Shown here piece after piece: positions 2,207 through 21,287 of a stretch of 22,056 nt of DNA. Below the pieces are notes generated by a model, which saw nothing but the letters and a program-made list of their open reading frames with translations, searched no databases and had not been told where the DNA came from. Position 1 is the stretch's first letter. Each line of letters begins with the position of its first letter. Made by a program: the position numbers and the translations under genes. Source of the DNA: a virus (taxonomy: Duplodnaviria; Heunggongvirae; Uroviricota; Caudoviricetes); IMG/VR virus record IMGVR_UViG_3300006131_000005, one strand, 5' to 3'.

Positions 2207-2212
2207 TTCAAA

Positions 2213-2674
2213 ATGAGCGACATCGCTATCGCGCATCACGGTATCAAAGGGATGAAGTGGGGAATCCGCAGAACGCCCGAACAGCTTGCAAGAGCCTCTG
2301 GTCGCCCTGTTCCGGAATCCGGTGAAAGCCGATCCGGGCGCACTGCTCAGAAGAAGGCCGCTTCGGCGACCGCCAGCAAGAGGACGCTCAGCGACCTTTC
2401 CGATGATGAGCTTCGGCAGCGCATTAGCCGTCTGGAGCTTGAGAAGCGCTATAAGGACTTGGAAAAGGCCGACGCCAAACCGAAGTCCACCCGAGGAAGG
2501 GACTTCTGCGTCAACGTGTTGGAAACCATTGGCAAAAACACGCTGACCAACATCGGCACCCAGGCAGCCAACCATGTCCTTGGTGAAGCCATCAACAAAT
2601 TGGCCGGCGTCTCCTCGGATGACAAGGCCCATCGCGTTGTGAACCCGCAAAAGGGCCAGGAAGACAAGAAGTAG
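2213..2674 (+). CDS. Small basic protein with HHGIKGMKWGIRR leader (copy 2)
   Basis: Strong RBS GAGGAGG. Shares RTPEQL.RAS, LS.LSD.E...RI.R..LE.RYKDL.K and RGR.FC...L..IG.N with copy 1. Confidence 0.8.
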   Translation: MSDIAIAHHGIKGMKWGIRRTPEQLARASGRPVPESGESRSGRTAQKKAASATASKRTLSDLSDDELRQRISRLELEKRYKDLEKADAKPKSTRGRDFCVNVLETIGKNTLTNIGTQAANHVLGEAINKLAGVSSDDKAHRVVNPQKGQEDKK

Positions 2675-2684
2675 GTGTCCGCGC

Positions 2685-4430
2685 ATGTCTTTATCAAACA
2701 CCGCTGTTCCTAAATATTACGGCGCGTTTCGTGAGGCGGTTCTGCGCGGGGAAATCTTTGTCAACAAGGAAATATCCATGGAGATGAACCGGATCGACGC
2801 ACTGATTGCCGACCGAAGTTTCTACTATGACGATCAGGCTGTCGAAGGGTGGGTCAGATACTGTGAGTCCGAGCTTACCCTGACCGACGGCTCTGATCTC
2901 AACCTCTTGGACACTTTTAAGTTGTGGGGGGAACAAATTTTCGGTTGGTATTACTTCGTGGACCGGAGCGTCTATGAGCCTTATCCCGATGGTCATGGCG
3001 GACGGTATGTACGAAAGACCATCAAGAAGCGGTTGGTCAACAAGCAGTATCTAATCGTTGCCAGAGGCGCGGCCAAGTCGATGTATGCGTCCACGCTGCA
3101 AAGCTACTTCTTGAATGTGGACACCAGCACCACCCACCAGATCACTACAGCCCCGACCATGAAACAGGCGGAGGAGGTTCTTTCACCGATTCGCACCTCC
3201 ATTGTCCGCTCCCGCGGGCCGCTGTTCCAGTTCCTGACGGAGGGCTCCTTGCAGAACACCACCGGCTCCAAGGCAAACCGCATGAAGCTGGCCTCCACCA
3301 AGAAGGGCATTGAGAACTTCCTGACGGGGTCTCTGCTGGAGATTCGTCCCATGAGTATTGCCAAGCTCCAGGGGCTCCAGGTTAAGATCGCGACTGTGGA
3401 CGAGTGGCTCTCCGGCGACATCCGGGAGGATGTTATCGGTGCCATCGAGCAGGGCGCTTCCAAGGTGGATGACTACATCATTGTTGCCATCAGTTCGGAG
3501 GGCACCGTTCGGAACGGAGCTGGCGACACCATCAAAATGGAGCTCATGAAGATCCTGAAGGGTGAGTACATCGCGCCCCATACCTCTGTTTGGTGGTACA
3601 AGCTGGACTCTGTTGACGAGGTCGCAGACCCCGAGATGTGGATCAAGGCCAACCCGAACCTGGGTAAGACCGTCAGCTATGACACTTATCAGAAGGATGT
3701 GGAGCGGGCCGAGCAGGCCCCCGCCGCCCGGAACGATATTCTGGCGAAACGGTTCGGCCTCCCTATGGAGGGGTATACCTACTACTTCACCTATGAGGAA
3801 ACCCTGCCTCATCGCCGCCGAGACTTCTGGCAAATGCCCTGCGCCCTCGGCGCGGACCTGTCTCAGGGCGACGATTTCTGCGCGTTTACATTCCTATTCC
3901 CTCTACGCGGAGGCGCGTTCGGGGTAAAGACCCGAAATTATATTTCCTCGCTCACCTTGAAGAAGCTGCCTGCGGCCATGCGGATCAAGTACGATCAGTT
4001 TATGGCTGAGGGCAGTCTTATGGTTTTGGAAGGAACTGTCTTAGACCTGATGCAGGTCTATGAGGATCTGGACGATCACATTGTCCGATGCGGCTATGAC
4101 GTCCGGTGCCTCGGTTATGACCCCTACAACGCAAAAGAGTTTGTAGAGAGGTGGCAGTCGGAAAACGGACCTTTCGGAATTGAGAAAGTCATTCAGGGCG
4201 CAAAAACGGAATCCGTTCCCTTGGGTGAGCTGAAAAAGCTCTCAGAGGAGCGGATGCTTTTATTTGACGAGGAATTGATGACCTTTGCCATGGGAAACTG
4301 CATCGCAAGCGAAGACACCAATGGAAACCGGAAGCTGCTGAAGATGCGGCGTGAGCAGAAGATTGACGCCGTTGCGGCGATGATGGATGCTTACATCGCC
4401 TATAAGCACAACCGGGAAGCTTTTGAGTAA
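2685..4430 (+). CDS. terL: Terminase large subunit
   Basis: 581 aa; Walker A-like VARGAAKS, Walker B IATVDEW, RNase H-like nuclease motifs LGADLSQGDD and KIDAVAAMMDA; located upstream of the portal. Confidence 0.95.
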   Translation: MSLSNTAVPKYYGAFREAVLRGEIFVNKEISMEMNRIDALIADRSFYYDDQAVEGWVRYCESELTLTDGSDLNLLDTFKLWGEQIFGWYYFVDRSVYEPYPDGHGGRYVRKTIKKRLVNKQYLIVARGAAKSMYASTLQSYFLNVDTSTTHQITTAPTMKQAEEVLSPIRTSIVRSRGPLFQFLTEGSLQNTTGSKANRMKLASTKKGIENFLTGSLLEIRPMSIAKLQGLQVKIATVDEWLSGDIREDVIGAIEQGASKVDDYIIVAISSEGTVRNGAGDTIKMELMKILKGEYIAPHTSVWWYKLDSVDEVADPEMWIKANPNLGKTVSYDTYQKDVERAEQAPAARNDILAKRFGLPMEGYTYYFTYEETLPHRRRDFWQMPCALGADLSQGDDFCAFTFLFPLRGGAFGVKTRNYISSLTLKKLPAAMRIKYDQFMAEGSLMVLEGTVLDLMQVYEDLDDHIVRCGYDVRCLGYDPYNAKEFVERWQSENGPFGIEKVIQGAKTESVPLGELKKLSEERMLLFDEELMTFAMGNCIASEDTNGNRKLLKMRREQKIDAVAAMMDAYIAYKHNREAFE

Positions 4431-4443
4431 AGGAGGACAGTTC

Positions 4444-4947
4444 ATGGAGCAAGAACTCGCCCATTTCGGCATCAAGGGTATGCACTGGGGCGTCCGCAGG
4501 TTTCAGCAGCCTGACGGTACCCTTACCTCCGCCGGGAAGAAGCGGTACTCCGCCGACCGGAAGACGAAGCTGACGGAGAGCGTTGAGGCCAAGAAGGCCC
4601 ACGTTGACGCCATGCGGAAACAGGCCGGCGAGCGTATCCAATTCTATGGCGGAAAGAACGTTGCCACCAATGCTATCCAGCAAGAGGCCGCTTACAAGAA
4701 GAAGTCCACCACCGCCAAGACGGTCACGGTGGGCACGGTCATCGCTACCGGCGCGGCCTATGCTGCGGCAGCCGCCACACAGTCCCTTCCAGTTGTCGGC
4801 CTCTCTACAGCGGTCGTCGCGGCAGGAACCGCTTTCGTAACGTCGAGGAAGAACCAGAAAATTTCCGCAATCGCGGACGAGCAGATCGCCTACACCAAGG
4901 ACAGTGACTACGGCCCCGACGTTGTTGTGCGAAAGTCTCGGGACTGA
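4444..4947 (+). CDS. Third leader-bearing protein (HFGIKGMHWGVRR) with a hydrophobic C-terminal segment
   Basis: ATG 4444 after AAGGAGG (ORF track extends to 4387). Same leader as 1883 and 2213 but an unrelated body; Ala/Val/Gly/Thr-rich stretch TVTVGTVIATGAAYAAAAA...VVGLSTAVVAAGTAFV. Confidence 0.8.
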   Translation: MEQELAHFGIKGMHWGVRRFQQPDGTLTSAGKKRYSADRKTKLTESVEAKKAHVDAMRKQAGERIQFYGGKNVATNAIQQEAAYKKKSTTAKTVTVGTVIATGAAYAAAAATQSLPVVGLSTAVVAAGTAFVTSRKNQKISAIADEQIAYTKDSDYGPDVVVRKSRD

Positions 4948-4967
4948 GATAAGGAGGGAAGGAGCGC

Positions 4968-6242
4968 GTGGAAATCACCCTTGGCTCGCGATTGAAGCAC
5001 GCGTGGAACGCGTTCCTCAGCAGAGAGCCCACAAGCAGCTACTACCAGGGTCTCGGAAGAGGCTACTCCTATCGTCCTGACCGGCCCCGGCTGACCCGTG
5101 GAAACGAACGTTCCATCGTCACGTCGGTACTCAATCGAATCGCGTTGGATGCGGCGGCTATTAACATTCAGCATGTGAAGCTGGATGACAATGGCCGCTT
5201 TGTTTCTACTGTTGACAGCGGTCTGAACAACTGTCTGACTGTGGAGGCCAATATTGACCAGACGGCCAGAGCCTTCGTCCATGACGTGGTCATGTCCATG
5301 ATGGACGAGGGCTGCGTTGCTATTGTTCCGGTGGATACGACCTTGAACCCGAAAGTAACCGGGGCCTATGACATCGTGACCATGCGAGCCGGACAAGTCG
5401 TCGAGTGGTATCCGGCTCATGTGAAGGTCCGGGTCTACAATGACCAGCGCGGCGAAAAGGAAGATATTTTACTTCCCAAAAGCGTGGTTGGAATCGTGGA
5501 AAATCCGCTTTATGCGGTGATGAACGAACCCAACTCCACCCTACAGCGCCTGATCAGAAAACTTAATCTGTTGGACGCTGTCGACGAGCAGGCCGGTTCC
5601 GGCAAGCTCGACCTTATTATTCAGCTTCCCTACGTCATCAAGACGGAGGCGAGACGCGCCCAGGCGGAAAAGCGCCGCAAGGACATTGAGGAACAGTTGT
5701 CCGGTTCCAAGTACGGTATCGCTTATACCGATGGTACGGAGCATATCGTGCAGCTGAATCGTGCCGTTGAGAACAATCTGATGACCCAGATCGAGTATCT
5801 GACGAGTATGCTTTACAGCCAGTTAGGGATCACGAAAGGGGTTATGGACGGTTCTGCCGACGAGCAGACGATGCTGAACTACTACAACCGGACGATCGAG
5901 CCCATTCTCTCCGCCATCGTTGACGAGATGAAGCGCAAGTTCCTGACAAAAACTGCTCGGTCGCAGTTGCAGTCGATCTCGTTCTTCCGAGATCCCTTCA
6001 AACTCGTTCCGGCCGCCCAGCTTGCCGAAATCGCGGACAAGCTTACCCGAAATGAGGTCATGTCGTCCAATGAGATCCGGCAGGTCATCGGGTTGAAGCC
6101 GTCTAAGGACCCGAAGGCGGATGAGCTTCGCAACAAGAACCTCAGCGAGCCAACGGCAAAGGGAAAGGGCGCCGAAACCAAGCCCGAACAGACCATCACC
6201 ACATCGAAGGAGGAAAACAATCAAAATGAAGCATCCGTGTGA
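4968..6242 (+). CDS. Portal protein (HK97-family)
   Basis: 424 aa, GTG start after AAGGAGG/AAGGAG; between terL and protease; IVTSVLNRIALD, YYNRTIEPIL and MSSNEIRQVIGL are typical HK97-portal-like segments. Confidence 0.9.
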   Translation: MEITLGSRLKHAWNAFLSREPTSSYYQGLGRGYSYRPDRPRLTRGNERSIVTSVLNRIALDAAAINIQHVKLDDNGRFVSTVDSGLNNCLTVEANIDQTARAFVHDVVMSMMDEGCVAIVPVDTTLNPKVTGAYDIVTMRAGQVVEWYPAHVKVRVYNDQRGEKEDILLPKSVVGIVENPLYAVMNEPNSTLQRLIRKLNLLDAVDEQAGSGKLDLIIQLPYVIKTEARRAQAEKRRKDIEEQLSGSKYGIAYTDGTEHIVQLNRAVENNLMTQIEYLTSMLYSQLGITKGVMDGSADEQTMLNYYNRTIEPILSAIVDEMKRKFLTKTARSQLQSISFFRDPFKLVPAAQLAEIADKLTRNEVMSSNEIRQVIGLKPSKDPKADELRNKNLSEPTAKGKGAETKPEQTITTSKEENNQNEASV

Positions 6243-8103
6243 TTTCAGCGGTTGGGCAACCAGAGCTAACCTCAGATGCTCTGACGGCCTCACCATCATG
6301 AAAGGTGCGTTTGAGGACAATGACGGGAAGAAAGTCCCTCTTGTCTACAACCACCTCCACAACGATCCCAGCCTTGTTCTGGGACACGCCATCCTGGAGA
6401 AGCGGGATGAGGGCGTGTATGCCTACTGCTACTTCAACGACACCCCCAACGGCCAGATGATGAAGCAGGCGGTGCAGCACGGCGACATCGACGCTCTGTC
6501 TATCTTCGCCAACCAGCTCAAGAAGCAGGGCAATTTCGTTACCAACGGCAATATCCGAGAGCTGAGCCTTGTCCTGGCCGGGGCTAACCCCGGAGCGTTC
6601 ATCGACTCCATCATGGCTCATGGCGAGGAGAGCGATGAAGAGGCCATCATCTACACTGGTGAGCCGCTGTGCCTCGCTCATGCCGATGGCGGCAAGAAGG
6701 AGGAGCCTCCCAAGCAGGAACCCCCTGCCAAGAAGGAAGAGCCCGCGAAGCAGGAGCCTTCCGCCCAGGAGAAGTCCGAGGAGGACGAGACTGTCGGCGA
6801 TGTCTACAACACGCTGACCGATAAGCAGAAGCGGGTCGTAAACTACATGCTCGGCGGGGCCCTCATGCAGGGTGATGCCGCCGGCGACGAATCTGAAGGA
6901 GGAGACAATACTATGAAGCACAACGTTTTCGAGAAGGATGGGACCAACGATTCCGTCCTGATGCATTCCGAGACCCGGCGCGGTATCATCGCTCTGGCCA
7001 AGCAGAACAGCGTTGGCAGCCTGCGGACCGCTTTCGCCATCTATGCCGAGCAGGCCGCCGCTGACGGTGATGATGAACTGAAACATGGCATTGATGCGCT
7101 CCAGCACGGCATCGACAACATTGAGAGCCTGTTCCCCGACTATAAGGATCTGAAGCCCGGCGCCCCCGAGCTGCTCACCCGGGATCAGGGTTGGGTCAAT
7201 GTGGTCATCGACAAGGTGCACAAGACCCCCATCGGCCGTATTCGCACTCGTCAGATGGACGCCCGCAACGAGAATGCCCGCGGTCAGGGCTACCAGAAGG
7301 GCAAGCGTAAGACCCCCGCCGGTAATATGAAGTTGCTGAGCCGGACCACCGACCCCCAGACCGTGTACTGCATCGACGCGCTGCATCGTGATGATGTCAC
7401 GGACATCACCGACTTCGATGTGATCGAGTATCAGTACGGCGTGATGAAGCAGAACCTCTACGAGGAGGTCGCTATCGCTATCATGGTGGGCGACGGCCGC
7501 GAGGAGGGCACCGAGATGAAGATCTCCGAGTCCCATATCCGCTCCATCTGGAACGACGACGATCTCTACACCATCCACTATGACGTGGACGTCGCTGCCG
7601 CCAGGGCTGAGCTTCAGGGCTCCCGCACCGACATGAACTTCGGTGAGAACTTCATCTACGCCGAGGCCATCGTGGCCGCCGCCATGTACTCCCGCGAGAA
7701 GTACAAGGGCACCGGCACTCCCGATCTGTTCTGTACGCCTCATCTGCTGAATGTGATGCTGCTGGCTCGTGATCTGAACGGCCGGCGTATCTACGACTCC
7801 AAGACCGATCTGGCCGCCGCGCTGAACGTCAACGCAATCTATACCGCCGAGCAGTTCGAGGGCTTGGTCCGCACTGATGACGACGGCGTGAAGCACAAGC
7901 TTCTGGGCATCTTCGTCAATCTGAACGACTACACCGTGGGCTCCACCAAGGGCGGCGAGATCACCCGCTTCAATCAGTTCGATATCGACTTCAACCAGCA
8001 CAAGCTCCTGATCGAGACTCGCCTGTCCGGTGCTCTGAACAGGGTCTACTCTGCCATTGCGCTGGAGGAGCCGGTGAAGTCCGCTTCTGGTGCGGCTGCT
8101 TAA
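6226..8103 (+). CDS. Fused prohead protease (HK97/S78-like) - linker/scaffold - major capsid protein
   Basis: ATG 6226 after AAGGAGG (ORF track extends to 6121). N-terminal DFSGWAT...VPLVYNH...LSIFA...IRELSLV..GANPGA is a prohead protease pattern. Acidic/Pro/Lys linker follows. The C-terminus FNQFDIDFNQHKLLIETRLSGAL is an HK97-fold capsid-like end. Confidence 0.9.
   Translation: MKHPCDFSGWATRANLRCSDGLTIMKGAFEDNDGKKVPLVYNHLHNDPSLVLGHAILEKRDEGVYAYCYFNDTPNGQMMKQAVQHGDIDALSIFANQLKKQGNFVTNGNIRELSLVLAGANPGAFIDSIMAHGEESDEEAIIYTGEPLCLAHADGGKKEEPPKQEPPAKKEEPAKQEPSAQEKSEEDETVGDVYNTLTDKQKRVVNYMLGGALMQGDAAGDESEGGDNTMKHNVFEKDGTNDSVLMHSETRRGIIALAKQNSVGSLRTAFAIYAEQAAADGDDELKHGIDALQHGIDNIESLFPDYKDLKPGAPELLTRDQGWVNVVIDKVHKTPIGRIRTRQMDARNENARGQGYQKGKRKTPAGNMKLLSRTTDPQTVYCIDALHRDDVTDITDFDVIEYQYGVMKQNLYEEVAIAIMVGDGREEGTEMKISESHIRSIWNDDDLYTIHYDVDVAAARAELQGSRTDMNFGENFIYAEAIVAAAMYSREKYKGTGTPDLFCTPHLLNVMLLARDLNGRRIYDSKTDLAAALNVNAIYTAEQFEGLVRTDDDGVKHKLLGIFVNLNDYTVGSTKGGEITRFNQFDIDFNQHKLLIETRLSGALNRVYSAIALEEPVKSASGAAA
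6913..8103 (+). CDS. Predicted nested in-frame product: major capsid precursor from an internal start (396 aa)
   Basis: GAAGGAGGAGACAATACT-ATG at 6913 is in frame with 6226 and has an optimal RBS. Confidence 0.65.
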   Translation: MKHNVFEKDGTNDSVLMHSETRRGIIALAKQNSVGSLRTAFAIYAEQAAADGDDELKHGIDALQHGIDNIESLFPDYKDLKPGAPELLTRDQGWVNVVIDKVHKTPIGRIRTRQMDARNENARGQGYQKGKRKTPAGNMKLLSRTTDPQTVYCIDALHRDDVTDITDFDVIEYQYGVMKQNLYEEVAIAIMVGDGREEGTEMKISESHIRSIWNDDDLYTIHYDVDVAAARAELQGSRTDMNFGENFIYAEAIVAAAMYSREKYKGTGTPDLFCTPHLLNVMLLARDLNGRRIYDSKTDLAAALNVNAIYTAEQFEGLVRTDDDGVKHKLLGIFVNLNDYTVGSTKGGEITRFNQFDIDFNQHKLLIETRLSGALNRVYSAIALEEPVKSASGAAA

Positions 8104-8118
8104 AGGAGAAAATTCAAA

Positions 8119-8445
8119 ATGGCGAAATGGTACGGCATGATCGGCTACGCGGAAACTGTGGAAACGACGCCGGGCAACTGGGATGAGCAGCTCACTGAGC
8201 GTCCGTATTACGGCGACGTGATTCGGAACACGCGGAAGCTGCAAGGCGCTGAAAAGGTCAATGACGACATCAGCATCGCCAATGAGATCAGCGTTGTGGC
8301 CGACCCATTTGCCTGCCAGAATTTCCACCGTATGCGCTACATCGAGTTCATGGGAGCAAAATGGAAGGTTTCCAATGTGGAGGTCCAGTATCCCAGACTC
8401 ATCCTGACAATCGGAGGTGTTTACAATGCCGGACAGACGGCTTAA
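8119..8445 (+). CDS. Head closure/stopper protein (gp16-like)
   Basis: 108 aa, beta-rich (YIEFMGAKWKVSNVEVQYPRLILTIGG), directly after the capsid gene; RBS AAAGGAG. Confidence 0.65.
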   Translation: MAKWYGMIGYAETVETTPGNWDEQLTERPYYGDVIRNTRKLQGAEKVNDDISIANEISVVADPFACQNFHRMRYIEFMGAKWKVSNVEVQYPRLILTIGGVYNAGQTA

Positions 8446-8734
8446 ACTTCATGAAATTTTATGCGGCATCCTGAACACCAGGAACGCATATTTTCAGCCT
8501 CCGGAGTCCGTGAAGATGAATTACCCCGCCATCGTGTACGCTTTGAGCAACATCAAAAGCTTGTACGCGAATGGCGGGGTTTATTTGTCTGGCCGGCAGT
8601 ACGCTGTGACCGTTATTGACAAGAACCCTGACAGTCCTTTTATCGGTGCGGTTGCGGCGCTGCCCACCTGCCGGTTTGACCGGCACTACAAAGCAGACAA
8701 TCTCAATCACTGGGTTTTCACCCTGTATTATTAA
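8426..8734 (+). CDS. Tail terminator/completion protein
   Basis: ATG 8426 after GGAGGTG. AYFQPP...YPAIVY...YAVTVID...FDRHY...HWVFTLY pattern; directly upstream of the major tail gene. Confidence 0.65.
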   Translation: MPDRRLKLHEILCGILNTRNAYFQPPESVKMNYPAIVYALSNIKSLYANGGVYLSGRQYAVTVIDKNPDSPFIGAVAALPTCRFDRHYKADNLNHWVFTLYY

Positions 8735-8749
8735 AGGAGGACGCGAACC

Positions 8750-9442
8750 ATGAGTAAAATCAAGTGGGACGAGACCGGTAAGCGTTATTACGAAACCGGT
8801 GTTGACCATGGCGTGCTGTACCCCATTGGCAGCAATGGCAAGTACGACAAGGGCGTGGCCTGGAACGGTCTGATCTCCGTTACCGAGGCCCCTTCCGGCG
8901 CGGAGCCCAATAACCTCTACGCTGACAACATCAAGTATCTGGTTCTGGTGGGCGCCGAGGACTTCGGCTATACCATCGAGGCCTATACCTACCCCGACGA
9001 GTGGGCCGCCTGCGACGGCTCCGCCGAGCCCGTCCTCGGCATGAGCATCGGCCAGCAGGCCCGCAAGATCTTCGGCCTTGTCCACCGCACCAAGCTGGGT
9101 AACGATACGGACGGGCAGGATCACGGCTATAAGCTGCATCTGCTCTACGGCGGTCTGGCCTCCCCCTCCGAGCGGGGCTATCAGACCGTCAATGACTCCC
9201 CCGAGGCCATCACCTTCAGTTGGGAAGTCACCACCACTCCTGTGGATGTTCCCGGCTTCAAGCCCACCGCCTGCGTCATCATCGACTCCACCAAGGTCGA
9301 CAGGGAGAAGCTGGCCGCGCTGGAAGAGATCTTGTACGGCAAAGACCCTGCTGCCGAGGGCGGCACCGACGGCACCGAGCCTCGCCTGCCTCTGCCCGCC
9401 GAGGTCATCGAGCTGCTCAAGGACGAGCCCGCTGCCGGCTGA
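8750..9442 (+). CDS. Major tail (tube) protein
   Basis: 230 aa; GVAWNGLISVTEAPSG, LYADNIKY, YKLHLLYG, FSWEVTT typical of siphophage tail tube proteins; RBS AAAGGAGG. Confidence 0.9.
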   Translation: MSKIKWDETGKRYYETGVDHGVLYPIGSNGKYDKGVAWNGLISVTEAPSGAEPNNLYADNIKYLVLVGAEDFGYTIEAYTYPDEWAACDGSAEPVLGMSIGQQARKIFGLVHRTKLGNDTDGQDHGYKLHLLYGGLASPSERGYQTVNDSPEAITFSWEVTTTPVDVPGFKPTACVIIDSTKVDREKLAALEEILYGKDPAAEGGTDGTEPRLPLPAEVIELLKDEPAAG

Positions 9443-9466
9443 TTCACAGCATTACAGTACATCCCA

Positions 9467-9502
9467 AAGCGGGGCTCTCTTAACCGAGGGCTCCGCTTCT
9501 TC
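9467..9502 (+). terminator. Stem-loop after the major tail gene (terminator/attenuator or mRNA stabiliser)
   Basis: AAGCGGGGCTCTC-TTAACC-GAGGGCTCCGCTT 13-bp stem (two G-U) followed by a weak CTTCT tail. Confidence 0.6.
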
Positions 9503-9528
9503 TAAAAATTGAAAGGAGAAATTTCCCA

Positions 9529-9906
9529 ATGCTGAAAAGATCTATCACTTACACTGACTACAACGGTGGCACGCGCACCGAGGATTTTTATTTCAACCTG
9601 ACACAGGCCGAGGTGACCGAGATGGAGCTGTCCGTGGACGGCGGCCTGGTTGAGATGATTAACCGCATCGTGGCCGCTCAGGACGGCAAGCAGATCATCG
9701 CCACCTTCAAGGACATCATCCTGCGGGCCTATGGCGAGAAGTCCCCCGACGGCAAGCGGTTTATCAAGAACCAGGAGCTCCGGGACGCCTTCGCTCAGAC
9801 TGAGGCTTATAGCATCCTGTTCATGGAGCTGGCCACCAATGCCGACGCGGCTGCGGCCTTTGTCAACGGTATTGTTCCGGCCCAGGCCGCTATTCCGGGA
9901 ACCTGA
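9529..9906 (+). CDS. Tail assembly chaperone (gpG-like)
   Basis: 125 aa immediately after the major tail gene; TYTDYNG..RTEDFYFNL...AYGEKSPDGKRF...AYS.LFMEL; RBS GAAAGGAG. Confidence 0.75.
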   Translation: MLKRSITYTDYNGGTRTEDFYFNLTQAEVTEMELSVDGGLVEMINRIVAAQDGKQIIATFKDIILRAYGEKSPDGKRFIKNQELRDAFAQTEAYSILFMELATNADAAAAFVNGIVPAQAAIPGT

Positions 9907-9926
9907 TCGCGTGAGGGAGACCGGAG

Positions 9927-15200: not shown

Positions 15201-18200
15201 TTCTCGTGAGCGCTCTGAAAGACCTTGACAAAATGGAGATCAGCAACGCCGGACAGACCCTGACGCTTCTACTTGGCGCGGTGGCGTCTCTCGCGTTGAT
15301 CGCGACGGCCTGCAAGGGTGTCAAGTTTGGCGCAGCCGCCACGATTCTGGCAATCGTTGTTTCGCTGAAACTCCTGGTAGGCTGCTTCAAGGACATCGCC
15401 AAACTCGACGTTGGAAAAGCGAAGAGCAGCATGGGCACCTTCGCTGGTATCTTTACCATGTTCGGTGCTCTGATGGTCGCCAGCAAATTCTCCGGCGAGA
15501 ACGCGAGCAAAGCGGGTTCCGCAATTCTGAAGATGGCGGCCTCGCTGATCCTTATCACTACAGCATTCAAAATGATGGCGGGAATCGACCCGCTGGATCT
15601 TGACCGGGCAACAGATACCGTCAGCAAACTGCTCCTGGTCTTCTCCGCTGTCACAGCTGCATCCCATTTCGCGGGAAAGAATGCGAGTAAGGCCGGATCT
15701 ATGCTTCTGCTGATGTCCGGCGCGATCCTGATCCTCTCCACTACGATGGTTGTACTGGCCCATCTTGATCCAAGTGGTCTGGGCCGGGCACTTGGAGCAA
15801 TCACCACACTCCTGGTCGTCTTTGGAGCTATGGTCGGCATCACCTATTTTGCAAAGGATTCCTCGCAGATTCAGGGCACGTTGATCACCATGACCATTGC
15901 TATATCCGCCATGGTGGCGGCAGTCGCGGCATTGAGCCTTCTGGACCCGCAGCGGCTTCTGGGGGCAACGGCCGCGATCAGTACCCTTGTGGCGGTGTTC
16001 TCCCTGTTAGTGGCGTCTACCCACTTCGCAAAGAAGGCGGGAAGCGTACTGGTCGTTATGACTGGCGTTGTAGCCGGTCTCGCCGGTATCCTCGCTTTGA
16101 TGTCCGCGTTCAATGTGCAGAACTCGGTCACTAACGCCTCCGCACTCTCTATCCTGCTGACGTCGCTGTCGGCGTCTCTGCTGATCCTCAGCAAAGCAAG
16201 CACGATTGCCCCGACAGCCTATGCCGCCATTGGTATCATGACTGCTGTGGTCGCCGGCCTTGCCGCTATCCTCGGTATTATGGACGGGCTCGGTGTCAGC
16301 GCATCTATCGAGACGGCGGCATCGTTGTCTGTCCTGCTTCTGTCCATGTCCGGGGCCTGCCTGATTCTGGCCGGAGTAGGCGCAACAGGTCCCGCCGCCT
16401 TTATTGGCATCGGTGCTCTGGCAACACTGATTGCCGGGCTCGGCGCTATCATGGCGGCTATCTGTGCTCTGACCGCTGACAATCCGACCATCGAGCAAGA
16501 CCTCGACCGGGCGATCATGATTCTGGAGAAGATCGGCACCGGCCTTGGGGCGACCATTGGCGGCTTTGTTGGTGGCGCTATCGGAGGGCTGAGCTCCGGG
16601 CTTCCTATCATCGGTACAAATCTGTCCGGGTTCATGACAAATGCCCAGCCCTTCTTCGACGCCGTTAAGGGCGTTGATGGGGAGGCTATGGCTGGCGTCA
16701 AATCTCTGGCCGAGGCATTGCTGGTTCTGACCGGTGTGAACGTGGTCGAAGGGCTCACCTCCTGGTTGACTGGTGGTACTTCTTTGGCGGACTTTGGCGA
16801 TGAGCTGATCGCTTTCGCGCCCAAGTTCAAGGAGTATTCTCAGTTGATGGAGGGAATCAATCCTGAAGTCATCGACGCCTCTGCAAACGCGGCCAAGACC
16901 CTTGCCGAGTTTGCCAGCGCCATTCCAAACCAAGGCGGTTTGCTTGCTGATCTGATCGGCGACAACACGCTGAGCACCTTTGCGGAAGAGCTTGTCCCAT
17001 TTGGGGAGAGCTTTTCAAAATACGCCCAATCCATCGACGGCATCAACGCGGAAACCGTGACTGCTTCGGCGAACGCGGCTAAATCGCTTGCTGAGTTTGC
17101 CAGCGCTATTCCCAATCAGGGCGGCATGTTGGCGGATTTGATGGGTGACAATACTCTGAGTTCCTTTGCCAAAGAGCTGGCTCTGTTCGGGCCTTCGCTG
17201 AAGTCCTATGCGGACAGTGTGACCGGCCTGGAGCCCTCTGTGGTGGAGAATTCCGCCAATGCGGCGAAGTCTCTTGCTGAGATGGCAAACTCCCTGCCGA
17301 ACAGTGGCGGCATCCTGGCTGAGTGGATGGGTGACAATACCCTGAGTTCCTTTGCGGCTGAGTTGGATCGTTTCGGCCCGGCTATCATGCAGTACGCCAA
17401 CAGCGTCACCGGCCTTCCGGTGGACGTGATCGAGGCATCCGTCTCCGCCGCAGGCGCGTTGTCTGCGCTGGCCGAGGGCCTTCCTAATCAGGGCGGTCTT
17501 GCCGCATGGTTCGGCGGAGATAACACCCTTGCCACCTTTGGAGAAGATTTGATCTCCTTTGGCAACAACCTGAGTGCATATTCCACGGCGATCAGCGACA
17601 TGAAACCCGATGCTGTAGTCGCATCCGCCAATGCTGCAAAGGCCCTCTCCAATCTGGCGGAAGGGCTCCCGGACAGCAGTCTGTTCGACCAGTGGTTCGG
17701 CGGGGATCAAACTCTTGCCTCATTTGGCGGCGACATTGCGGCGTTCGGCGAGGCCATGAGCAACTACTACGCCGCTATCTCCGGGATCGACATTCCGAAG
17801 ATGGAGGGGGTTGTGACCGCTGTCTGGAGTCTCGTTGATTTGGCGAAGGGTGTCAAAGAGATCGACAAGAACGCATTTTCCAATTTCAGCACCTCCCTTA
17901 GCACCCTGGCGAGCACTGGGGTCACCGGGTTTACCAACGCGTTCTACAACTGTGACAGCGAGGTCACATCGGCGGTAGTCGGTATGCTGAACAAAGTCGG
18001 TTCTGCCATTACCGCCAACTCCTCCATTCCCAGTAGTTCCATGCAGACCGTAGTCACATCCCTGGTAGAGGTCGTCAAGACCAAGACTTCGGATGTCGAA
18101 ACTGCAACCGCCTCCATGATGACCGCGATGCGGGCCAAAATCTCGTCCTACAGCGTCGTCATCAAGACGGCTATGGGGAGCGTGGTTTCCGCCGCTGTCA

Positions 18201-20521
18201 GCAAGATCAACGGGATGAAGCCGGATTTCGAGACTGCCGGTAAGAATGCCGGTCAGGGTTTCGTCAACGGCATCAACTCCAAGCTGAGCGCTTCCAGCGC
18301 GGCAGGCCGTAACCTGGGCCTCTCGGCTCTGAAAGCGGCGCAGAAAGCGCTGGACAGCCATTCTCCTTCCAGAGAGTTCGAGCAGCTCGGTCAGAATACC
18401 GACGAGGGGTATGCCAAGGGCGTAACGAATAACGCCGGGATCGTGAAGCAGGCCGTCACCGATGTAATGGACACCGCCAAGAGCGCCGTCGGCACAATGG
18501 AAGGCCCCGATATGGACAAGTGGATCGGAAAGGTCAGCAAGTCCGTGACAGAGGCCGTGGAGTCAACTGGAGCCACGGAAACCAAGGTTGCTCAGCAGAC
18601 GGCTGCCGCTGTCAAGAAGTCTTCCAAGGTAAAGACGGAGGCCTCCAAGAGCGCCCTCGACGCATTCGAGGACTACATCGAGGAGGAGCGGTACTACAGC
18701 CGCATCACCACCGAGGAGCAGCTTGCTGCGTATAAAGAGGTTCTGGCTACCTATCAGCTTACCGCTGAGGAGCGGAAGAAGGTGGCCCGGGAGATCTACA
18801 CGCTGGAGAAGCAGCTTAAAACGGACTGGATCGAGGAAGAGAAGTATTACAACCGGCTCAGTCTGGAGGACGAGCTGGCGGCCTATGAACAGCTCCAGGC
18901 CATGTATGCCGAAGGCACCGAGGAATACAAGAAGATGGCTCGGGAGGTATACCGCCTGCGAAACGAGCTGACGGCGGCATCCTACCAGAACTCCATGGAC
19001 TGGATCGAGGAAGAGAAGTATTACAACCGAATGAGCCTTTCTGACGAGCTGGCGGCCTATAAGCGCGTTCAGAGCCGGTATGCCAAGGGCACCGACGAGC
19101 GCAAGAAGATAGATCGCGAGGTCTACCGGCTAGAGAAAGAGATCAGCGAAGCCCAGAAGCAGTACATCGAAGACGTACAGAAGGTCCAGAGCGAGGCCAA
19201 TCAGAAGCGCCTTGACCTGGAGCAGGAGTACGCCGACAAGGTCAAATCCATCAACGACAGGCTGGCCCAGGATATCAAGTCGGCCAACGATCAGTATGAG
19301 AACGCCTTGAAATCCCGCGAGAACAGCCTCTACAGCTCCTATGGTCTCTTTGACGCAGTCAAGGAACGGGAGGACGTCAGTGGGGATACCCTGATGAAGA
19401 ACCTGGAAGGGCAGGTCAAGGAGTTCGGCGAGTGGCAGGATATTTTGGATAGTCTGACAGGTCGTGGACTGGATTCCGAGCTTATTGAAGAACTTCAAAA
19501 TATGGGTCCCAGTGCCATTGCTCAGATCAAGGCGCTGAATTCCATGACCGACTCTGAGCTGGAGAAGTATGCCTCTCTCTGGTCTGTTAAACACGGTCAG
19601 GCTCGGGAGCAGGCGGTCAGCGAACTGGAAGGGCTCCGTATTGAGACCCAGAACAATATTGCTCAGCTTCGTGCTGACGCGGCTCAGGAACTGGACGAGT
19701 ATCGTGCTGTGTGGCAAACGAAGATGGATCAGGTCGCCGCCGATGCCAACGCAGAACTGGAACAGCTTCAAAAGGACTTCGGCGAGAAGGTCGGACTTAT
19801 CAAGACCAACACCGAGAAGGATTTGGAGGAGATGTCCGAGACCGCTCAGAAGATTCTCCGTGAAGCAGGATGGGATGAGACTGGCAAGCAGATCGTCGCT
19901 GGTTTGACCGAAGGCGTGAAGTCGGAGCGTTCCAGCTTCATTGACGAGCTGACAAGTATGGCCCTCGCCAGCGTGGAGGCGATAAAGGATACCCTTGAGA
20001 TCAATTCGCCATCCCGCGTTACCCGAGAACTGGGCAACTATACGGGGCTCGGTCTCGTGAAGGGCCTGCGCGACTACGCAGACAAATCCTACGACGCAGG
20101 GGCGAACATGGCGGAGTCTATGAAGGGCGGTCTCTCCAACGCCATTTCTACCATCAGCGACCTGATGGATGGTGATATGGATATGCAGCCCACCATTCAG
20201 CCGGTTCTTGACCTCTCCAACGTGACAAAGGGAGCGAACGAACTTAATAGCCTGTTTTACCCCAAGATGACCATGAGCCTTGTGGGGCAGGCGGCTTTGG
20301 CGTTCGGTTCCTCTGGGGACAGAGGTCAGATGACTGTTAAGGTTGACAATACCAGCGTGGTGGAAGAACTTCGCATTCTTCGGGGTGAAATGACCGAAAT
20401 GACGGCACGTTTGGAACGGATGCAGATTGTGCTGGACACCGGAGTGATGGTCGGTCAGATGGCCGCTCCGATGGACGAAGCCCTTGGTCAGAGGGCAATT
20501 TACAGGGGAAGGGGGAACTAA
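12278..20521 (+). CDS. Tail tape measure protein (2747 aa)
   Basis: TTG start. N-terminal tape-measure domain (KTIYSFADMTQNIGKFTNAGV...AMYNFGQALSAG); long Ala/Leu/Gly-rich helical and hydrophobic repeats; two SPSR motifs; directly upstream of Dit. Confidence 0.95.
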   Translation: MSTTIDEKVVEMRFDNKHFETNVQTSISTLDKLKQSLDLNGAAKGLENIDSAAKKCDMSTLGKSVETVRMKFSALEVMAMTALSNITNSAMNAGKRLASTFTVEPITTGFNEYELKMGSIQTIMAGTGESLERVNQKLDELNLYSDKTIYSFADMTQNIGKFTNAGVKLDDAVAAIQGVANVAAVSGANANEASRAMYNFGQALSAGYVKLIDWKSIENANMATVEFKQQLMDTAVEMGTLVKVGEKYQSTTTDLNGHVSDLFNSTLLFNDSLSSQWMTTEVLSKTLAKYADETTEIGKKAFAAAQDVKTFTQLMDTLKESAQSGWAETWQIVVGDFEEAKKLFTEMSEFFGAMISDSAKARNELLSSALGSGWSSFLKEGIGDAVGFKESIVNAARAHGVAIEEIASKTEKFEDSLNQGWLSADILSDALADLTKKTAGLSDAELANIGMTRDQVDDLEKLNQAIKDGSVNLEEYANKIGRMSGRENLIQSFRNVLQALFAVPKEAGDLIGVITVIRDAFREIFPPATSEQVYALTEGLRNLTEKLKMSEETADKLKRTCKGLFAIVDIFTTLTGGALKAAIKVAAKLLGMVDVDILDITANVGDAIVAFRDWIDQHNFLAKGIEKALPYIESGIKALRSWIARLGELPLVQKAISRFGNAFRDVSDRFGVYMEGGIERIKAFIERVKAMNGLTLDNIGKALADFRDNVLSYFLNFGGIFDGLIQAVKDFGSDVKLAFEQLTGGAENAKAKMKTTVGGIIQFFLNMKDRIFAIALEIREKLADKIGFGEIFALGLGAAMVAFTKKISDALETISAPFEGIGALLKSASKALNAFAMETKSKALLNVAEAIAVLVGALAVLTLLDQEKLKGSLVVLGVLAAGLLAVSFAMSKMGDPKELVKLSTSIVAVGASLLLLANAMKTLESLNGDKVGGSLAILGVLAAGLVAVSKLLSSKDKTFSKSSLFMIGFALSLKLLVSALKDLDKMEISNAGQTLTLLLGAVASLALIATACKGVKFGAAATILAIVVSLKLLVGCFKDIAKLDVGKAKSSMGTFAGIFTMFGALMVASKFSGENASKAGSAILKMAASLILITTAFKMMAGIDPLDLDRATDTVSKLLLVFSAVTAASHFAGKNASKAGSMLLLMSGAILILSTTMVVLAHLDPSGLGRALGAITTLLVVFGAMVGITYFAKDSSQIQGTLITMTIAISAMVAAVAALSLLDPQRLLGATAAISTLVAVFSLLVASTHFAKKAGSVLVVMTGVVAGLAGILALMSAFNVQNSVTNASALSILLTSLSASLLILSKASTIAPTAYAAIGIMTAVVAGLAAILGIMDGLGVSASIETAASLSVLLLSMSGACLILAGVGATGPAAFIGIGALATLIAGLGAIMAAICALTADNPTIEQDLDRAIMILEKIGTGLGATIGGFVGGAIGGLSSGLPIIGTNLSGFMTNAQPFFDAVKGVDGEAMAGVKSLAEALLVLTGVNVVEGLTSWLTGGTSLADFGDELIAFAPKFKEYSQLMEGINPEVIDASANAAKTLAEFASAIPNQGGLLADLIGDNTLSTFAEELVPFGESFSKYAQSIDGINAETVTASANAAKSLAEFASAIPNQGGMLADLMGDNTLSSFAKELALFGPSLKSYADSVTGLEPSVVENSANAAKSLAEMANSLPNSGGILAEWMGDNTLSSFAAELDRFGPAIMQYANSVTGLPVDVIEASVSAAGALSALAEGLPNQGGLAAWFGGDNTLATFGEDLISFGNNLSAYSTAISDMKPDAVVASANAAKALSNLAEGLPDSSLFDQWFGGDQTLASFGGDIAAFGEAMSNYYAAISGIDIPKMEGVVTAVWSLVDLAKGVKEIDKNAFSNFSTSLSTLASTGVTGFTNAFYNCDSEVTSAVVGMLNKVGSAITANSSIPSSSMQTVVTSLVEVVKTKTSDVETATASMMTAMRAKISSYSVVIKTAMGSVVSAAVSKINGMKPDFETAGKNAGQGFVNGINSKLSASSAAGRNLGLSALKAAQKALDSHSPSREFEQLGQNTDEGYAKGVTNNAGIVKQAVTDVMDTAKSAVGTMEGPDMDKWIGKVSKSVTEAVESTGATETKVAQQTAAAVKKSSKVKTEASKSALDAFEDYIEEERYYSRITTEEQLAAYKEVLATYQLTAEERKKVAREIYTLEKQLKTDWIEEEKYYNRLSLEDELAAYEQLQAMYAEGTEEYKKMAREVYRLRNELTAASYQNSMDWIEEEKYYNRMSLSDELAAYKRVQSRYAKGTDERKKIDREVYRLEKEISEAQKQYIEDVQKVQSEANQKRLDLEQEYADKVKSINDRLAQDIKSANDQYENALKSRENSLYSSYGLFDAVKEREDVSGDTLMKNLEGQVKEFGEWQDILDSLTGRGLDSELIEELQNMGPSAIAQIKALNSMTDSELEKYASLWSVKHGQAREQAVSELEGLRIETQNNIAQLRADAAQELDEYRAVWQTKMDQVAADANAELEQLQKDFGEKVGLIKTNTEKDLEEMSETAQKILREAGWDETGKQIVAGLTEGVKSERSSFIDELTSMALASVEAIKDTLEINSPSRVTRELGNYTGLGLVKGLRDYADKSYDAGANMAESMKGGLSNAISTISDLMDGDMDMQPTIQPVLDLSNVTKGANELNSLFYPKMTMSLVGQAALAFGSSGDRGQMTVKVDNTSVVEELRILRGEMTEMTARLERMQIVLDTGVMVGQMAAPMDEALGQRAIYRGRGN
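16880..17809 (+). repeat. Five tandem 186-nt (62-aa) repeats inside the tape measure gene
   Basis: The Pro codon of the PNQGG/PNSGG/PDSS motif sits at 16925, 17111, 17297, 17483 and 17669 (exact 186-nt period). Consensus SANAAK.LAE.A..LPN.GG.LA...GDNTL..F...L..FG.....Y. A degenerate sixth copy lies just upstream. Confidence 0.9.
18671..19150 (+). repeat. Three 51-58-aa D[WY]IEEE[KR]YY repeats in the tape measure C-terminal region
   Basis: Copies start at 18671, 18824 and 18998. Copies 2 and 3 share the identical 32-mer GACTGGATCGAGGAAGAGAAGTATTACAACCG and an identical GACGAGCTGGCGGCCTAT. Confidence 0.9.
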
Positions 20522-20522
20522 C

Positions 20523-21284
20523 GTGTATCATTCTGTTACCTTTGGCGAGAAGAACACCTGGGATGACTGGCGGCTGGTCCCCTCTTCCCGGCCTGTTTTC
20601 AACCCTCCTGCGCAAAAGGTGAAGACATTGGACATTCCAGGTGGGGACGGCGTCATTGATTTGTCGCAAGCTCTCACCGGGTATCCGGTGTATCAGAACC
20701 GGACGGGCTCTATCGAGTTCATCGTCATGAACGACTTCAAGCCTTGGCATATGGCCTATTCCGACATCATGGACTATCTGCATGGGCAGAGTCTTCGAGC
20801 TGTGCTGGAGGATGACCCTGAGTATTTTTACGAAGGGCGTTTCGCGGTCAACCAGTGGAAGTCGGACAAGGACTGGTCACGCATCACCATCGACTATGAT
20901 GTGGGGCCGTACAAGTGGTCGGTGCTGTCATCCATCGACGACTGGCTCTGGGACCCGTTCAACTTTCAAAATGGCGTTATCCGCGCCACGCTGTTCAAGA
21001 ACATCTCTGTTACCACTGCGACATCTGTCAAGAGGTTGGATGCAAAGCTCTTTGGAAGAGCCCCAATCTGCCCCCGGTTCATTGTGCGGAGTACGGCTGG
21101 TCGGGGCGTTCACGCCCGCTTCGTCAACCCTAAGCTGGAACTCGATATTACGAAGCTTCTTCACGATGGAACGGTGCAGATTCCAGAGTTCGTTTTCTTC
21201 GGCGATATGGGAGCCGACATTTACTTTTGGTGCGACGCGGGCTCGGCGACGGTGTCGGTCGATTTTAGAGTAGGGAGGCTATGA
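20523..21284 (+). CDS. Distal tail protein (Dit)
   Basis: GTG 20523 right after the TMP stop (ORF track extends to 20484). ..DIPGGDG.IDLS.ALTG...YQNRTGSIEF...YFYEGR is a Dit-like N-terminal pattern; canonical TMP-Dit-Tal order. Confidence 0.8.
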   Translation: MYHSVTFGEKNTWDDWRLVPSSRPVFNPPAQKVKTLDIPGGDGVIDLSQALTGYPVYQNRTGSIEFIVMNDFKPWHMAYSDIMDYLHGQSLRAVLEDDPEYFYEGRFAVNQWKSDKDWSRITIDYDVGPYKWSVLSSIDDWLWDPFNFQNGVIRATLFKNISVTTATSVKRLDAKLFGRAPICPRFIVRSTAGRGVHARFVNPKLELDITKLLHDGTVQIPEFVFFGDMGADIYFWCDAGSATVSVDFRVGRL

Positions 21285-21287
21285 CTG

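Follow-up and report, generated by a model that had tools for sequence, protein, structure and literature searches.

A strand-specific octamer in the late genes of Firmicutes and Actinobacteria phages as a candidate promoter element of their two-barrel RNA polymerase

The phage-encoded RNA polymerases that bear most closely on this work differ in what is known of the sites they read. The non-virion polymerase of phiKZ requires no more than a strict TATG overlapping the start site (PMC7598289), YonO transcribes the late genes of SPbeta from a promoter that was left undetermined (PMC5467207), and the two-barrel polymerases of P23-45 have promoter motifs of their own. Single-polypeptide two-barrel enzymes of the YonO-like or QDE-1-like kind draw interest as models for what the ancestral polymerase was like. 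One further protein has been described by Koert et al. (bioRxiv 10.1101/842583) as a putative RNA polymerase and as the signature of a supercluster of Actinobacteria and Firmicutes phages; it is this same protein that is encoded beside the DNA described here. Our literature searches found no promoter for its family, phrog_4291, and no earlier description of the motif TCAAAATG, which is the subject of the present analysis.

The window, by which we mean the whole stretch of 22,056 nucleotides that was analysed (IMG/VR record IMGVR_UViG_3300006131_000005), lies about 900 nt downstream of a gene for a 927-residue polymerase, found on a contig 99.99% identical to the window. A gene of this kind, encoding about 900 residues, is present in every member of the phage group examined; its product in the Arthrobacter phage Giantsbane is gp93. 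The protein is a member of phrog_4291 with a weak RdRP Pfam match and sigma70_r4/HTH domains, laid out as two N-terminal HTH motifs and one C-terminal HTH like sigma region 4, and its DFDGD catalytic loop is invariant among the homologues. The AlphaFold2 (AF2) model matches QDE-1 (E 2e-8), P74-26 gp62, P23-45 gp64 and RDR2, and more weakly beta'; the modelled fold thus identifies the product as a single-polypeptide two-barrel RNA polymerase of the QDE-1/YonO-like type with fused HTH domains. The Actinobacteria and Firmicutes phage polymerases are 45-58% identical, with many invariant residues in the HTH segments, a pattern that fits an unchanged DNA target. All 45 loci with the polymerase gene in our scan also contain the motif. 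A negative control, namely the same structural module without the polymerase, was sought among the relatives and none was found; because the two are always together in the supercluster, this co-occurrence fits a polymerase signal or a virion or packaging-protein signal alike.

The octamer TCAAAATG is the commonest 8-mer of the window. A sequence-only reading had placed nine copies on one strand and none on the other, and an exact count over both strands reproduced every one of them (2208, 3532, 6221, 8114, 10035, 12070, 13917, 15567 and 20966, all +), with no reverse complement on the - strand. The neighbouring bases are also as had been described, T before the word in six of the nine copies and a purine after it in all nine. 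Dinucleotide shuffles of the window gave a mean of 0.70 copies and a maximum of 3. In a more demanding shuffle of synonymous codons, in which the proteins, codon usage, start codons and intergenic DNA were preserved, the mean rose to 2.6 and the maximum to 6 in 1000 runs, and the excess still stood. Markov models led to the same result, with expectations of 0.67 at order 3 and 3.55 (maximum 7) at order 5 against the observed 9; the maximal-order expectation of 8.6 is uninformative, as the embedded 7-mers share the same excess. The quasi-regular spacing that had been proposed is borderline in the window taken by itself (CV 0.52, P ~0.05) and becomes clear only family-wide, where the gaps between sites have a median of 1865 nt and fall below 500 nt in 1.3% of cases, against 22.5% expected if the sites were placed randomly. 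The near-matches listed earlier are likewise present: GCAAAATG at 8356, ACAAAATG at 15228 and TCAAAATA twice (17015-17022 and 19495-19502, both +). The two copies of TCAAAATA fall in a 5.4-kb gap in the tape measure gene and their status is uncertain; family-wide this variant occurs 36 times on the + strand and 11 times on the -, near the ordinary coding-strand bias.

Three of the nine copies overlap start codons, at called genes starting at 2213, 6226 and 8119, and the remaining six lie inside genes, in agreement with the first description (all coordinates that follow are on the + strand). The copy at 2208-2215 provides the ATG at 2213 of a DUF7211 gene (2213-2674) directly upstream of terL, with GGAGGA upstream of it. 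That at 6221-6228 overlaps the 3' end of the portal gene and provides the ATG at 6226 of a protease-major capsid fusion gene (6226-8103); in most relatives examined a copy lies at or just before the start of the capsid gene. The copy at 8114-8121 contains the ATG at 8119 of a DUF7253 gene (8119-8445). Within genes, the copy at 3532-3539 is read in frame as I-K-M in terL (2685-4430), at a position that is kept across the family, and the copy at 10035-10042 encodes S-K-W of the conserved peptide EHSLVSLSKWE in the gene at 9927-10469. The copy at 12070-12077 lies in a small gene (11834-12220, or an overlapping frame at 11868-12275) between the lysin and tape measure genes, where it is read as Q-N-G, with a strong terminator-like hairpin, at 12225-12244, 155 nt farther downstream. 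Two copies, at 13917-13924 and 15567-15574, are in-frame K-M in the tape measure gene (12278-20521), neither with a Shine-Dalgarno sequence, and the last, at 20966-20973, is read as F-Q-N-G in the distal tail (Dit) gene, which has a GTG start at 20523 and ends at 21284. The codons that the internal copies use are indeed rare in the genes of the window (TCA for 11 of 361 Ser, AAA for 70 of 324 Lys and CAA for 16 of 168 Gln).

Two local explanations were considered and set aside. The copies at 10035 and 12070 can be drawn in the loops of 5-bp stems, an idea that was dropped, as the family logos have neither paired nor conserved flanks; and a programmed frameshift at the CCCTTTC adjoining the copy at 10035 was rejected, since the heptamer is out of the zero frame. 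A 35-nt identity to phage Giantsbane at this same copy is accounted for by the very conserved peptide together with the motif.

Relatives of the window's phage were collected as a dereplicated set of 1 Mb, which comprises prophages of gut Oscillospiraceae and Lachnospiraceae, IMG/VR contigs, and phages of Arthrobacter, Streptomyces, Gordonia, Rhodococcus, Curtobacterium, Lactococcus and Faecalibacterium. In this set TCAAAATG occurs 392 times on the gene strand and 4 times on the other, in genomes whose GC content ranges from 34 to 61%. It is again the top 8-mer, with twice the count of AAGGAGGA, and all 24 of its one-mismatch variants have counts of no more than 59, that is, they are at least 6.6-fold rarer. 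The antisense word is depleted as well, its 4 copies comparing with a mean of about 16 for its one-mismatch neighbours. The extended form of the word is W-TCAAAATG-G-R-R; a lineage-specific flank is seen in OlympicHelado, all 8 sites of which have G at -1. Start codons account for about 38% of the family's sites, 95% of them with a Shine-Dalgarno sequence. Sites internal to genes make up about 60%; their counts by reading frame are 94, 105 and 77, and only 4-9% of them have a Shine-Dalgarno sequence. Between genes, the last G of the word serves in about a dozen cases as the first base of the Shine-Dalgarno sequence of the next gene. All 10 named phages examined contain the motif, including Bilo, which has only 3 copies and encodes the polymerase too.

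That this is a matter of nucleotides rather than of protein is seen at two conserved peptides, at which codons are fixed within the motif and vary at the synonymous sites next to it. Among homologous sites of the terL peptide GDT-I-K-M-EL, the motif is present in 37 of 41 distinct sequences, with Ile encoded by ATC in 36 of 37 and Lys by AAA in 40 of 41. At EHSLVSLSKWE it is present in 39 of 42 distinct sequences; the Ser of the motif is TCA in 40 of 42 and the Lys is AAA in 41 of 42, while the two neighbouring Ser codons are TCA in only 4 and 6 of 42. Position and density of the motif are also kept in related phages. The original proposal of a phage-specific signal beyond what protein coding accounts for is therefore borne out, and TCAAAATG is a real signal, under strong selection and limited to one strand, in a large group of Firmicutes and Actinobacteria phages.

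The distribution of the sites along complete genomes is equally uneven. Each of five genomes (93-100% complete) has a single co-oriented block of 21-29 kb, with a spacing of about 1.9 kb inside the block and 0-1 stray sites elsewhere. The block begins about 2 kb downstream of the gene for the ~900-residue polymerase; the first ~2 kb of the late arm, with the terS-like gene, the HNH gene and the connector gene, is free of sites, and the replication arm, of 30-45 kb and in the same orientation, has 0-1. In Giantsbane, all of whose genes are on the + strand, all 7 sites lie in the first 20 kb, which leaves the other 36.7 kb empty. Oengus has 17 from terL onward and none in the 15 kb upstream, and the phage of the window itself lacks them over the 10 kb that precede the window. 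In the late region of Oengus, an inserted gene on the opposite strand retains TCAAAATG on the + strand, 329 nt before the next rightward gene. In one prophage, G001, a further co-oriented cluster follows the integrase gene; a second polymerase gene was sought near this cluster and was not found. Three stray copies on the opposite strand of complete genomes are intergenic or antisense to local genes and therefore look like background. All complete phage records with annotation that were examined have all their genes on one strand, and no relatives with inverted late genes were found, so that the polarity of transcription and that of the DNA strand coincide in this set. The sites are confined to one gene class, the late or virion genes, and do not run along the whole of one genome strand.

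With the gene of a two-barrel polymerase directly upstream of the window, a promoter is the most economical reading, and we consider TCAAAATG to be, probably, a promoter or initiation element of this enzyme for the late genes. Our inferences are that the enzyme binds to the motif, that RNA synthesis begins at it and that the late genes are the class served. The enzyme would be made from the early or replication arm, its fused HTH domains would bind the short double-stranded word, and rightward transcription would be initiated at many points along a late operon of 20-35 kb. As TCAAAATG is A-rich and ends in ATG, it could be placed at almost no cost, and three placements may be distinguished: on a start codon behind a Shine-Dalgarno sequence, with its last G opening the next Shine-Dalgarno sequence, or within a gene at the expense of rare codons. 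Selection would then maintain about one copy per 2 kb and purge copies from the antisense strand. The start point would probably lie at or before the final G of the word, as in the phiKZ late promoter T(-3)ATG(+1). Matches to sigma-70-like promoters number 5 in the late region, against 8.6 by chance. In a bolder form, which we put forward tentatively and hold to be somewhat doubtful, TCAAAATG(G) would be a complete sigma-independent promoter with the start inside the word, read by the fused HTH domains of the polymerase and unchanged letter for letter in the phages of both phyla.

The promoter reading is not free of difficulties. The stretch is present in six metatranscriptome runs, as assembled contigs only, whose ends are not aligned with TCAAAATG sites; as such contigs cannot show starts, this weighs neither for nor against a promoter. 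Because about 38% of the sites include the start codon, initiation at the final G would skip the gene in question, and a promoter would more naturally be expected upstream of the Shine-Dalgarno sequence than on the start codon. Promoters acting additively along the operon would favour the distal tail genes over the capsid gene in the amount of RNA. Two further observations speak against a promoter, namely that no site is found in the first ~2 kb of the late arm and that the start of the tape measure gene is separated from a site by a strong hairpin terminator. The low count of 3 copies in Bilo is a further difficulty.

As an alternative, TCAAAATG could be a cis site for another step or control of late transcription and not for initiation, an explanation that we consider unlikely. 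Such a site could act in pausing, re-loading or antitermination of the polymerase, as a switch or silencer bound by an HTH protein (a stoperator or an enhancer), or as a signal for processing or stability of the late mRNA. The late-block distribution, the co-orientation and the strict sequence would all be the same, the overlap with start codons is awkward for a promoter, and contigs from the RNA libraries span several sites, so that transcripts need not begin at each. However, the motif is an 8-mer without a surrounding hairpin or other conserved context, a signal at the RNA level would not be retained on the + strand within an opposite-strand gene as it is in Oengus, and a series of pause or termination sites ahead of the capsid gene would reduce its expression. 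The RNA antitermination element suggested in the sequence-only reading shares the link to transcription, yet another reading fits better. Silencing may be compared with the stoperators of cluster A mycobacteriophages (the L5 gp71 sites), asymmetric 13-bp sites in one orientation with respect to transcription along operons; these are mostly intergenic, lie in both genome arms and are bound by the prophage repressor. Stoperators would be expected in temperate phages only, and a silencer of this type requires a repressor, whereas lytic members of the present group also have TCAAAATG, as exemplified by Giantsbane, which is described as lytic and has no annotated lysogeny genes.

A polar signal of the DNA itself, outside transcription, is improbable in our estimation. 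It came first among the options of the sequence-only reading, which named programmed nicks, as in T5 and some Pseudomonas podoviruses, a packaging or ejection cue, or replication; priming sites belong here as well. The sites are on one strand, sequence-specific and quasi-regular, their spacing of about 2 kb is like the length of Okazaki fragments, and the family has both an HNH gene and a primase-polymerase gene. The nicks of T5 and of the Pseudomonas phages tf and LUZ24, which also follow a short consensus on one strand, occur throughout the genome, whereas TCAAAATG sites do not extend beyond the late block; they are missing from the co-oriented replication arm, at which a whole-genome process would not stop. 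Nick sites and packaging or replication cues are not supported, given this confinement to one late block. The HNH protein, which had been named as the candidate nicking enzyme, is of the ordinary terminase-associated kind, encoded upstream of the first site; its gene adjoins the terS-like gene, upstream of terL, as in the cos-cutting HNH-terminase systems of HK97-type phages. The motif is also retained in prophages and identical across hosts of two phyla.

It is most improbable that TCAAAATG merely reflects the context of translation starts together with protein conservation, with no separate function at the nucleotide level. The word does end in ATG behind an A-rich spacer, the start-codon class with its Shine-Dalgarno sequences is large, and in host genomes the word is mildly in excess of the reversed control; against this, most sites are internal, in all frames and rarely preceded by a Shine-Dalgarno sequence, the synonymous codons are fixed inside the motif only, the excess is abolished by the synonymous shuffle, and early genes of the same phages are without the motif. 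Nor does TCAAAATG hold the fixed place upstream of start codons that characterises the start-associated sequences of cluster K mycobacteriophages. A polar octamer read by the host, such as Chi or KOPS/SRS, and accumulated by the phage would resemble TCAAAATG in being an 8-mer of extreme strand polarity, but this explanation, to which we give hardly any credence, is effectively refuted by the even strand counts in three host genomes of 3.1-4.3 Mb (111 vs 130, 91 vs 117 and 75 vs 79, about one per 13-20 kb and overall near one per 18 kb), and the same word occurs in phages of Actinobacteria and Firmicutes, whose hosts range in GC from about 35% to more than 65%, and is confined to late genes.

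Returning to the candidate promoter, TCAAAATG offers a concrete element of 8-10 nt in cultivable phages of Arthrobacter, Streptomyces, Gordonia, Lactococcus and Faecalibacterium, among them Giantsbane of Arthrobacter, OlympicHelado of Streptomyces, P092 and 1706 of Lactococcus and Oengus of Faecalibacterium. It accounts for runs of rare codons and invariant synonymous sites in the terL, tail and tape measure genes, provides a simple metagenome marker for the phage supercluster and its late block, and helps to correct the annotation of start codons. Should the promoter reading be true, a very short promoter common to phages of two host phyla would be a candidate orthogonal expression system for Gram-positive bacteria. 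In the bolder form given above, with the start inside the word, other genes or elements sharing the cell could adopt it. A promoter of that form, lying over start codons and Shine-Dalgarno sequences, would also decide which reading frames each transcript can express; the full-length protease-capsid fusion, for example, would be skipped while the internal capsid start would still be allowed.

Among known promoters, the late promoters of T4, TATAAATA, are 8-bp elements present in many strict, co-oriented copies along the late genes, some of them inside upstream genes, and are used by the host polymerase with gp55, gp33 and gp45. T7-type promoters are 23 bp long and mostly intergenic, and their Pol-I-like polymerase is unrelated. 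Neither kind overlaps start codons as a rule, whereas TCAAAATG often does. The Thermus phage two-barrel polymerases P74-26 gp62 and P23-45 gp64 are structural relatives of the present enzyme, and their promoters are conserved motifs upstream of mapped starts; yet these enzymes act on early and pre-early genes, at longer motifs of other sequence, and have no fused HTH domains. YonO is closer in being a single-polypeptide two-barrel DNA-dependent RNA polymerase for late structural and lysis genes, with its gene upstream of the late operon. It is, however, of another protein family, with one reported start site, upstream of yonK (PMC5467207), and in SPbeta TCAAAATG is at background, with 5 and 9 copies in 134 kb and no excess. 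The late promoter of phiKZ, 5'-T(-3)ATG(+1)-3', resembles the proposed TCAAAATG promoter in being very short and strict, in ending in ATG and in serving late genes (PMC7598289), and its reader is likewise a non-canonical two-barrel phage polymerase without sigma. The phiKZ enzyme is multi-subunit and its word is of 4 nt, with extra specificity that is unexplained, whereas here a single polypeptide with fused HTH domains would read 8-10 nt that include a candidate start site.

The octamer TCAAAATG is the commonest 8-mer of the window, with nine exact copies on the + strand (at 2208, 3532, 6221, 8114, 10035, 12070, 13917, 15567 and 20966) and none on the − strand. The sequence-only reading had listed precisely these coordinates, together with a T before six copies, a purine after all nine and several near-matches, and all were found in the window as described. 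Dinucleotide-preserving shuffles of the window give 0.70 copies for both strands summed (maximum 3), and an order-3 Markov model predicts 0.67. A synonymous-codon shuffle within each called gene, which left proteins, codon usage and start codons intact and did not touch intergenic DNA, was run 1000 times and gave a mean of 2.6 copies and never more than 6, whereas the window has 9; the excess thus survives the codon-preserving null that had been proposed as a check on it. The codons at gene-internal copies are, as had been claimed, atypical of the window genes, in which TCA accounts for 3% of Ser, AAA for 22% of Lys and CAA for 10% of Gln codons.

The window is a siphovirus late region, its genes running in the order terS-like, HNH, connector, three DUF7211 genes, terL, portal, protease–capsid fusion, tail genes, lysin, tape measure (2747 aa) and Dit. 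The lysin gene (10466–11830; 454 aa, lysozyme plus amidase) lies among the tail genes, downstream of those for the tail chaperones and ahead of the tape measure gene, outside any lysis cassette, and its product may be tail-associated. The tape measure protein (12278–20521) has a short TMP_3 at residues 116–222 as its only Pfam match, and the AT skew flips within its gene, between about 14 and 18 kb. Metatranscriptome runs of mouse gut from four studies, like many metagenomes of this habitat, contain contigs with 95% or more identity (99% or more for most) to window positions 1500–21400; because they recur in this way, the phage is common in laboratory-mouse microbiota, the signal in RNA libraries being either transcription or carried-over DNA.

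Outside terL, the sole nucleotide match of the window to a known phage is 47 nt around the copy at 10035, shared with Arthrobacter phage Giantsbane, in which all seven copies of TCAAAATG lie on + within the first 20 kb, four of them at positions homologous to window copies. With the capsid fusion protein, we gathered 104 related loci (1.62 Mb) from IMG/VR and from genomes of Oscillospiraceae, Lachnospiraceae, Ruminococcus and others, and these carry 620 copies on the gene strand versus 4 on the opposite one (392 versus 4 in a dereplicated set of 61 loci, 1 Mb). The positions and density of the motif are thus conserved in relatives, as the sequence-only reading expected of a genuine signal. In the dereplicated loci taken together, TCAAAATG is the top 8-mer, with double the frequency of AAGGAGGA, and all 24 of its one-mismatch variants have 3 to 59 copies each. 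Ten named phages, with GC contents from 34% to 61% and hosts from two phyla, carry it on +: Giantsbane (7), OlympicHelado (8 in the 30.5 kb read), Bilo (3), P092 (11 in 28 kb read), FP_oengus, here Oengus (17 in 36.3 kb read), Qui (16), ReqiPoco6 (9), Secretariat (6), Eevee (8) and Circum (6); the − strand has one copy in Oengus and none in the others.

Individual members have their own peculiarities. In Bilo (L117, 1–24000), the three exact copies all sit at the family's most conserved positions, and the late arm has seven copies of TCAACAAG on + and none on −, with no further copy in the remaining genome. In OlympicHelado, G precedes all eight copies, where Firmicutes members favour T or A; this lineage-specific flank could covary with the polymerase. 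The annotated start of its gene 15 (10800) is probably wrong, because the motif ATG at 10782 yields MRFYGK, matching N termini in the window and Giantsbane. Giantsbane also has TATAATGA ten times on + and never on −; these copies look like host-type −10 elements, and they may correspond to a 32-bp repeat that has been published for intergenic DNA of the early region.

The gene that directly precedes the late block of Oengus is annotated as a 'putative RNA polymerase', and homologues of about 900 aa occupy the corresponding position, behind a gene for a Cas4-like nuclease, in Giantsbane, Bilo, the Oscillospiraceae prophage and the window's own phage, which has a 185-aa gene where relatives have the nuclease gene. 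In a contig 99.99% identical to the window, this last homologue lies at L113:6301–9084 (window position equals L113 position minus 9736), about 900 nt before the first base of the window; it has 927 aa, DFDGD at residue 544 and three HTH motifs. All homologues belong to phrog_4291, with a weak Pfam RdRP match, a C-terminal HTH like sigma-70 region 4 and an invariant DFDGD, and are 45–58% identical between Actinobacteria and Firmicutes. An AlphaFold2 model of the window phage protein (pLDDT 70.7) matched QDE-1 (E 2e-8), the Thermus phage two-barrel polymerases P74-26 gp62 and P23-45 gp64, plant RDR2 and, more weakly, beta' subunits in the PDB. Koert et al. (bioRxiv 10.1101/842583) made the same RNA polymerase assignment by HHpred, with the protein as a signature of their supercluster of Firmicutes and Actinobacteria phages, and described no promoter or DNA motif. 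Our scan found the polymerase gene in 45 loci, and TCAAAATG is present in 45/45; in SPbeta, whose polymerase YonO is of another family, it is at background level only.

Phages with their own polymerase normally carry many co-oriented promoter copies on the genes that it serves. Since TCAAAATG is the most over-represented word of these genomes, strict at 8/8 positions, restricted to a late block starting some 2 kb downstream of the polymerase gene and under-represented on the antisense strand, it is probably a promoter or initiation element of the phage polymerase; the highly conserved sequences of the HTH domains built into the latter fit an unchanged DNA target. Against a promoter, placement over a start codon is odd, and the late arm has no copy in its first 2 kb. 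A strong hairpin before the tape measure gene is another weak point: at 12225–12244 (+), between the gene at 11834–12220 and the tape measure start at 12278, seven G–C pairs are followed by a T-rich tail (ACTTTTTATT), the only convincing + strand terminator-like structure of the late region. Some other transcription-linked role, such as a pause, a re-loading or regulator site or an RNA signal, is a possibility that we rate as fairly unlikely. Because the polymerase and the structural module are always together in the genomes seen, a virion- or packaging-linked reader of the motif could also be envisaged.

The sites form one block and are not spread over a genome strand. Oengus has its first copy at the terL start and none in the 15 kb upstream, the window's phage has none in the 10 kb upstream of the window (in the 99.99%-identical contig), and the last 36.7 kb of Giantsbane have none, though all genes there also lie on +. 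Each of five IMG/VR genomes (93–100% complete) has one co-oriented block of 21–29 kb, the other 30–45 kb holding 0 or 1 copy, and these stray copies do not share the orientation of the genes around them. A relative whose late genes are inverted did not turn up among the genomes examined. The block distribution argues against a DNA-level nick, packaging, priming or replication signal, a kind that the sequence-only reading had listed among its options and that now appears improbable. Host chromosomes carry TCAAAATG about once per 13–20 kb, equally on both strands, which excludes a Chi- or KOPS-type signal and makes any host-read octamer very hard to credit.

Two arrangements deserve mention. In Oengus, an opposite-strand gene without a PHROG match (350 aa; L112:16880–17932) has been inserted downstream of terL, ahead of the portal region, and carries a + strand TCAAAATG at 17734, 329 nt before the next rightward gene. 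In the Oscillospiraceae genome that harbours a related prophage and has a single polymerase gene, a second cluster (G001:C1:106313–122430; loci L119 and L120) has seven co-oriented copies in 16 kb, one of them at an anti-repressor start codon; on one side of it is an integrase gene and on the other a gene for a 1382-aa primase-polymerase (phrog_4210), and on the circular phage map it would come immediately after the late block. Either it belongs to that prophage, whose length would then be about 95 kb, or it is an element of its own that borrows the signal.

Among 459 distinct instances, the motif ATG is a gene start in about 38%, 95% of these with a Shine–Dalgarno sequence, and about 60% are ORF-internal, in all three frames (94/105/77), with a Shine–Dalgarno in only 4–9%. 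Two conserved family peptides were picked by protein pattern, without use of the motif. In EHSLVSLSKWE, the motif Ser is TCA in 40/42 distinct versions (the other two Ser codons in 4/42 and 6/42) and Lys is AAA in 41/42; in terL GDT-I-K-M-EL, ATC encodes 36/37 Ile and AAA 40/41 Lys. These placements and fixed codons, like the synonymous shuffle, leave an artefact of translation context scarcely conceivable. Logos of internal sites alone show, beyond the motif, only W at −1, G at +8 (R 89%) and purines at +9/+10, with no upstream element or paired flanks. The quasi-periodic spacing noticed in the window extends to the family, with a median gap of 1865 nt and only 1.3% of gaps below 500 nt, versus 22.5% expected at random placement.

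TCAAAATG is placed in three ways, on a start codon, with its final G opening the next gene's Shine–Dalgarno, or inside coding sequence, and these fit a signal required about once per 2 kb and set where its cost is lowest. The second arrangement, TCAAAATGGAGG-N9-ATG, is seen in about a dozen cases; were TCAAAATG a promoter, this arrangement would put its start point at or before that G.

The motif is absent from the paper of Koert et al. and every other paper returned by our literature searches, including the Giantsbane preprint, in which the early-region repeat of 32 bp is the only one reported. Promoters of phage-encoded polymerases are a known kind of element; what would be new, if the promoter reading is true, is an uncharacterised polymerase family, a very short element written over coding sequence and start codons, and its letter-for-letter conservation across two bacterial phyla. 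On this reading, precedents for phage polymerase promoters are found in YonO, which transcribes the SPbeta late genes from an undefined promoter (PMC5467207), in the phiKZ non-virion polymerase, which needs only a strict T(−3)ATG(+1) (PMC7598289), and in the two-barrel polymerases of P23-45, which have their own motifs.
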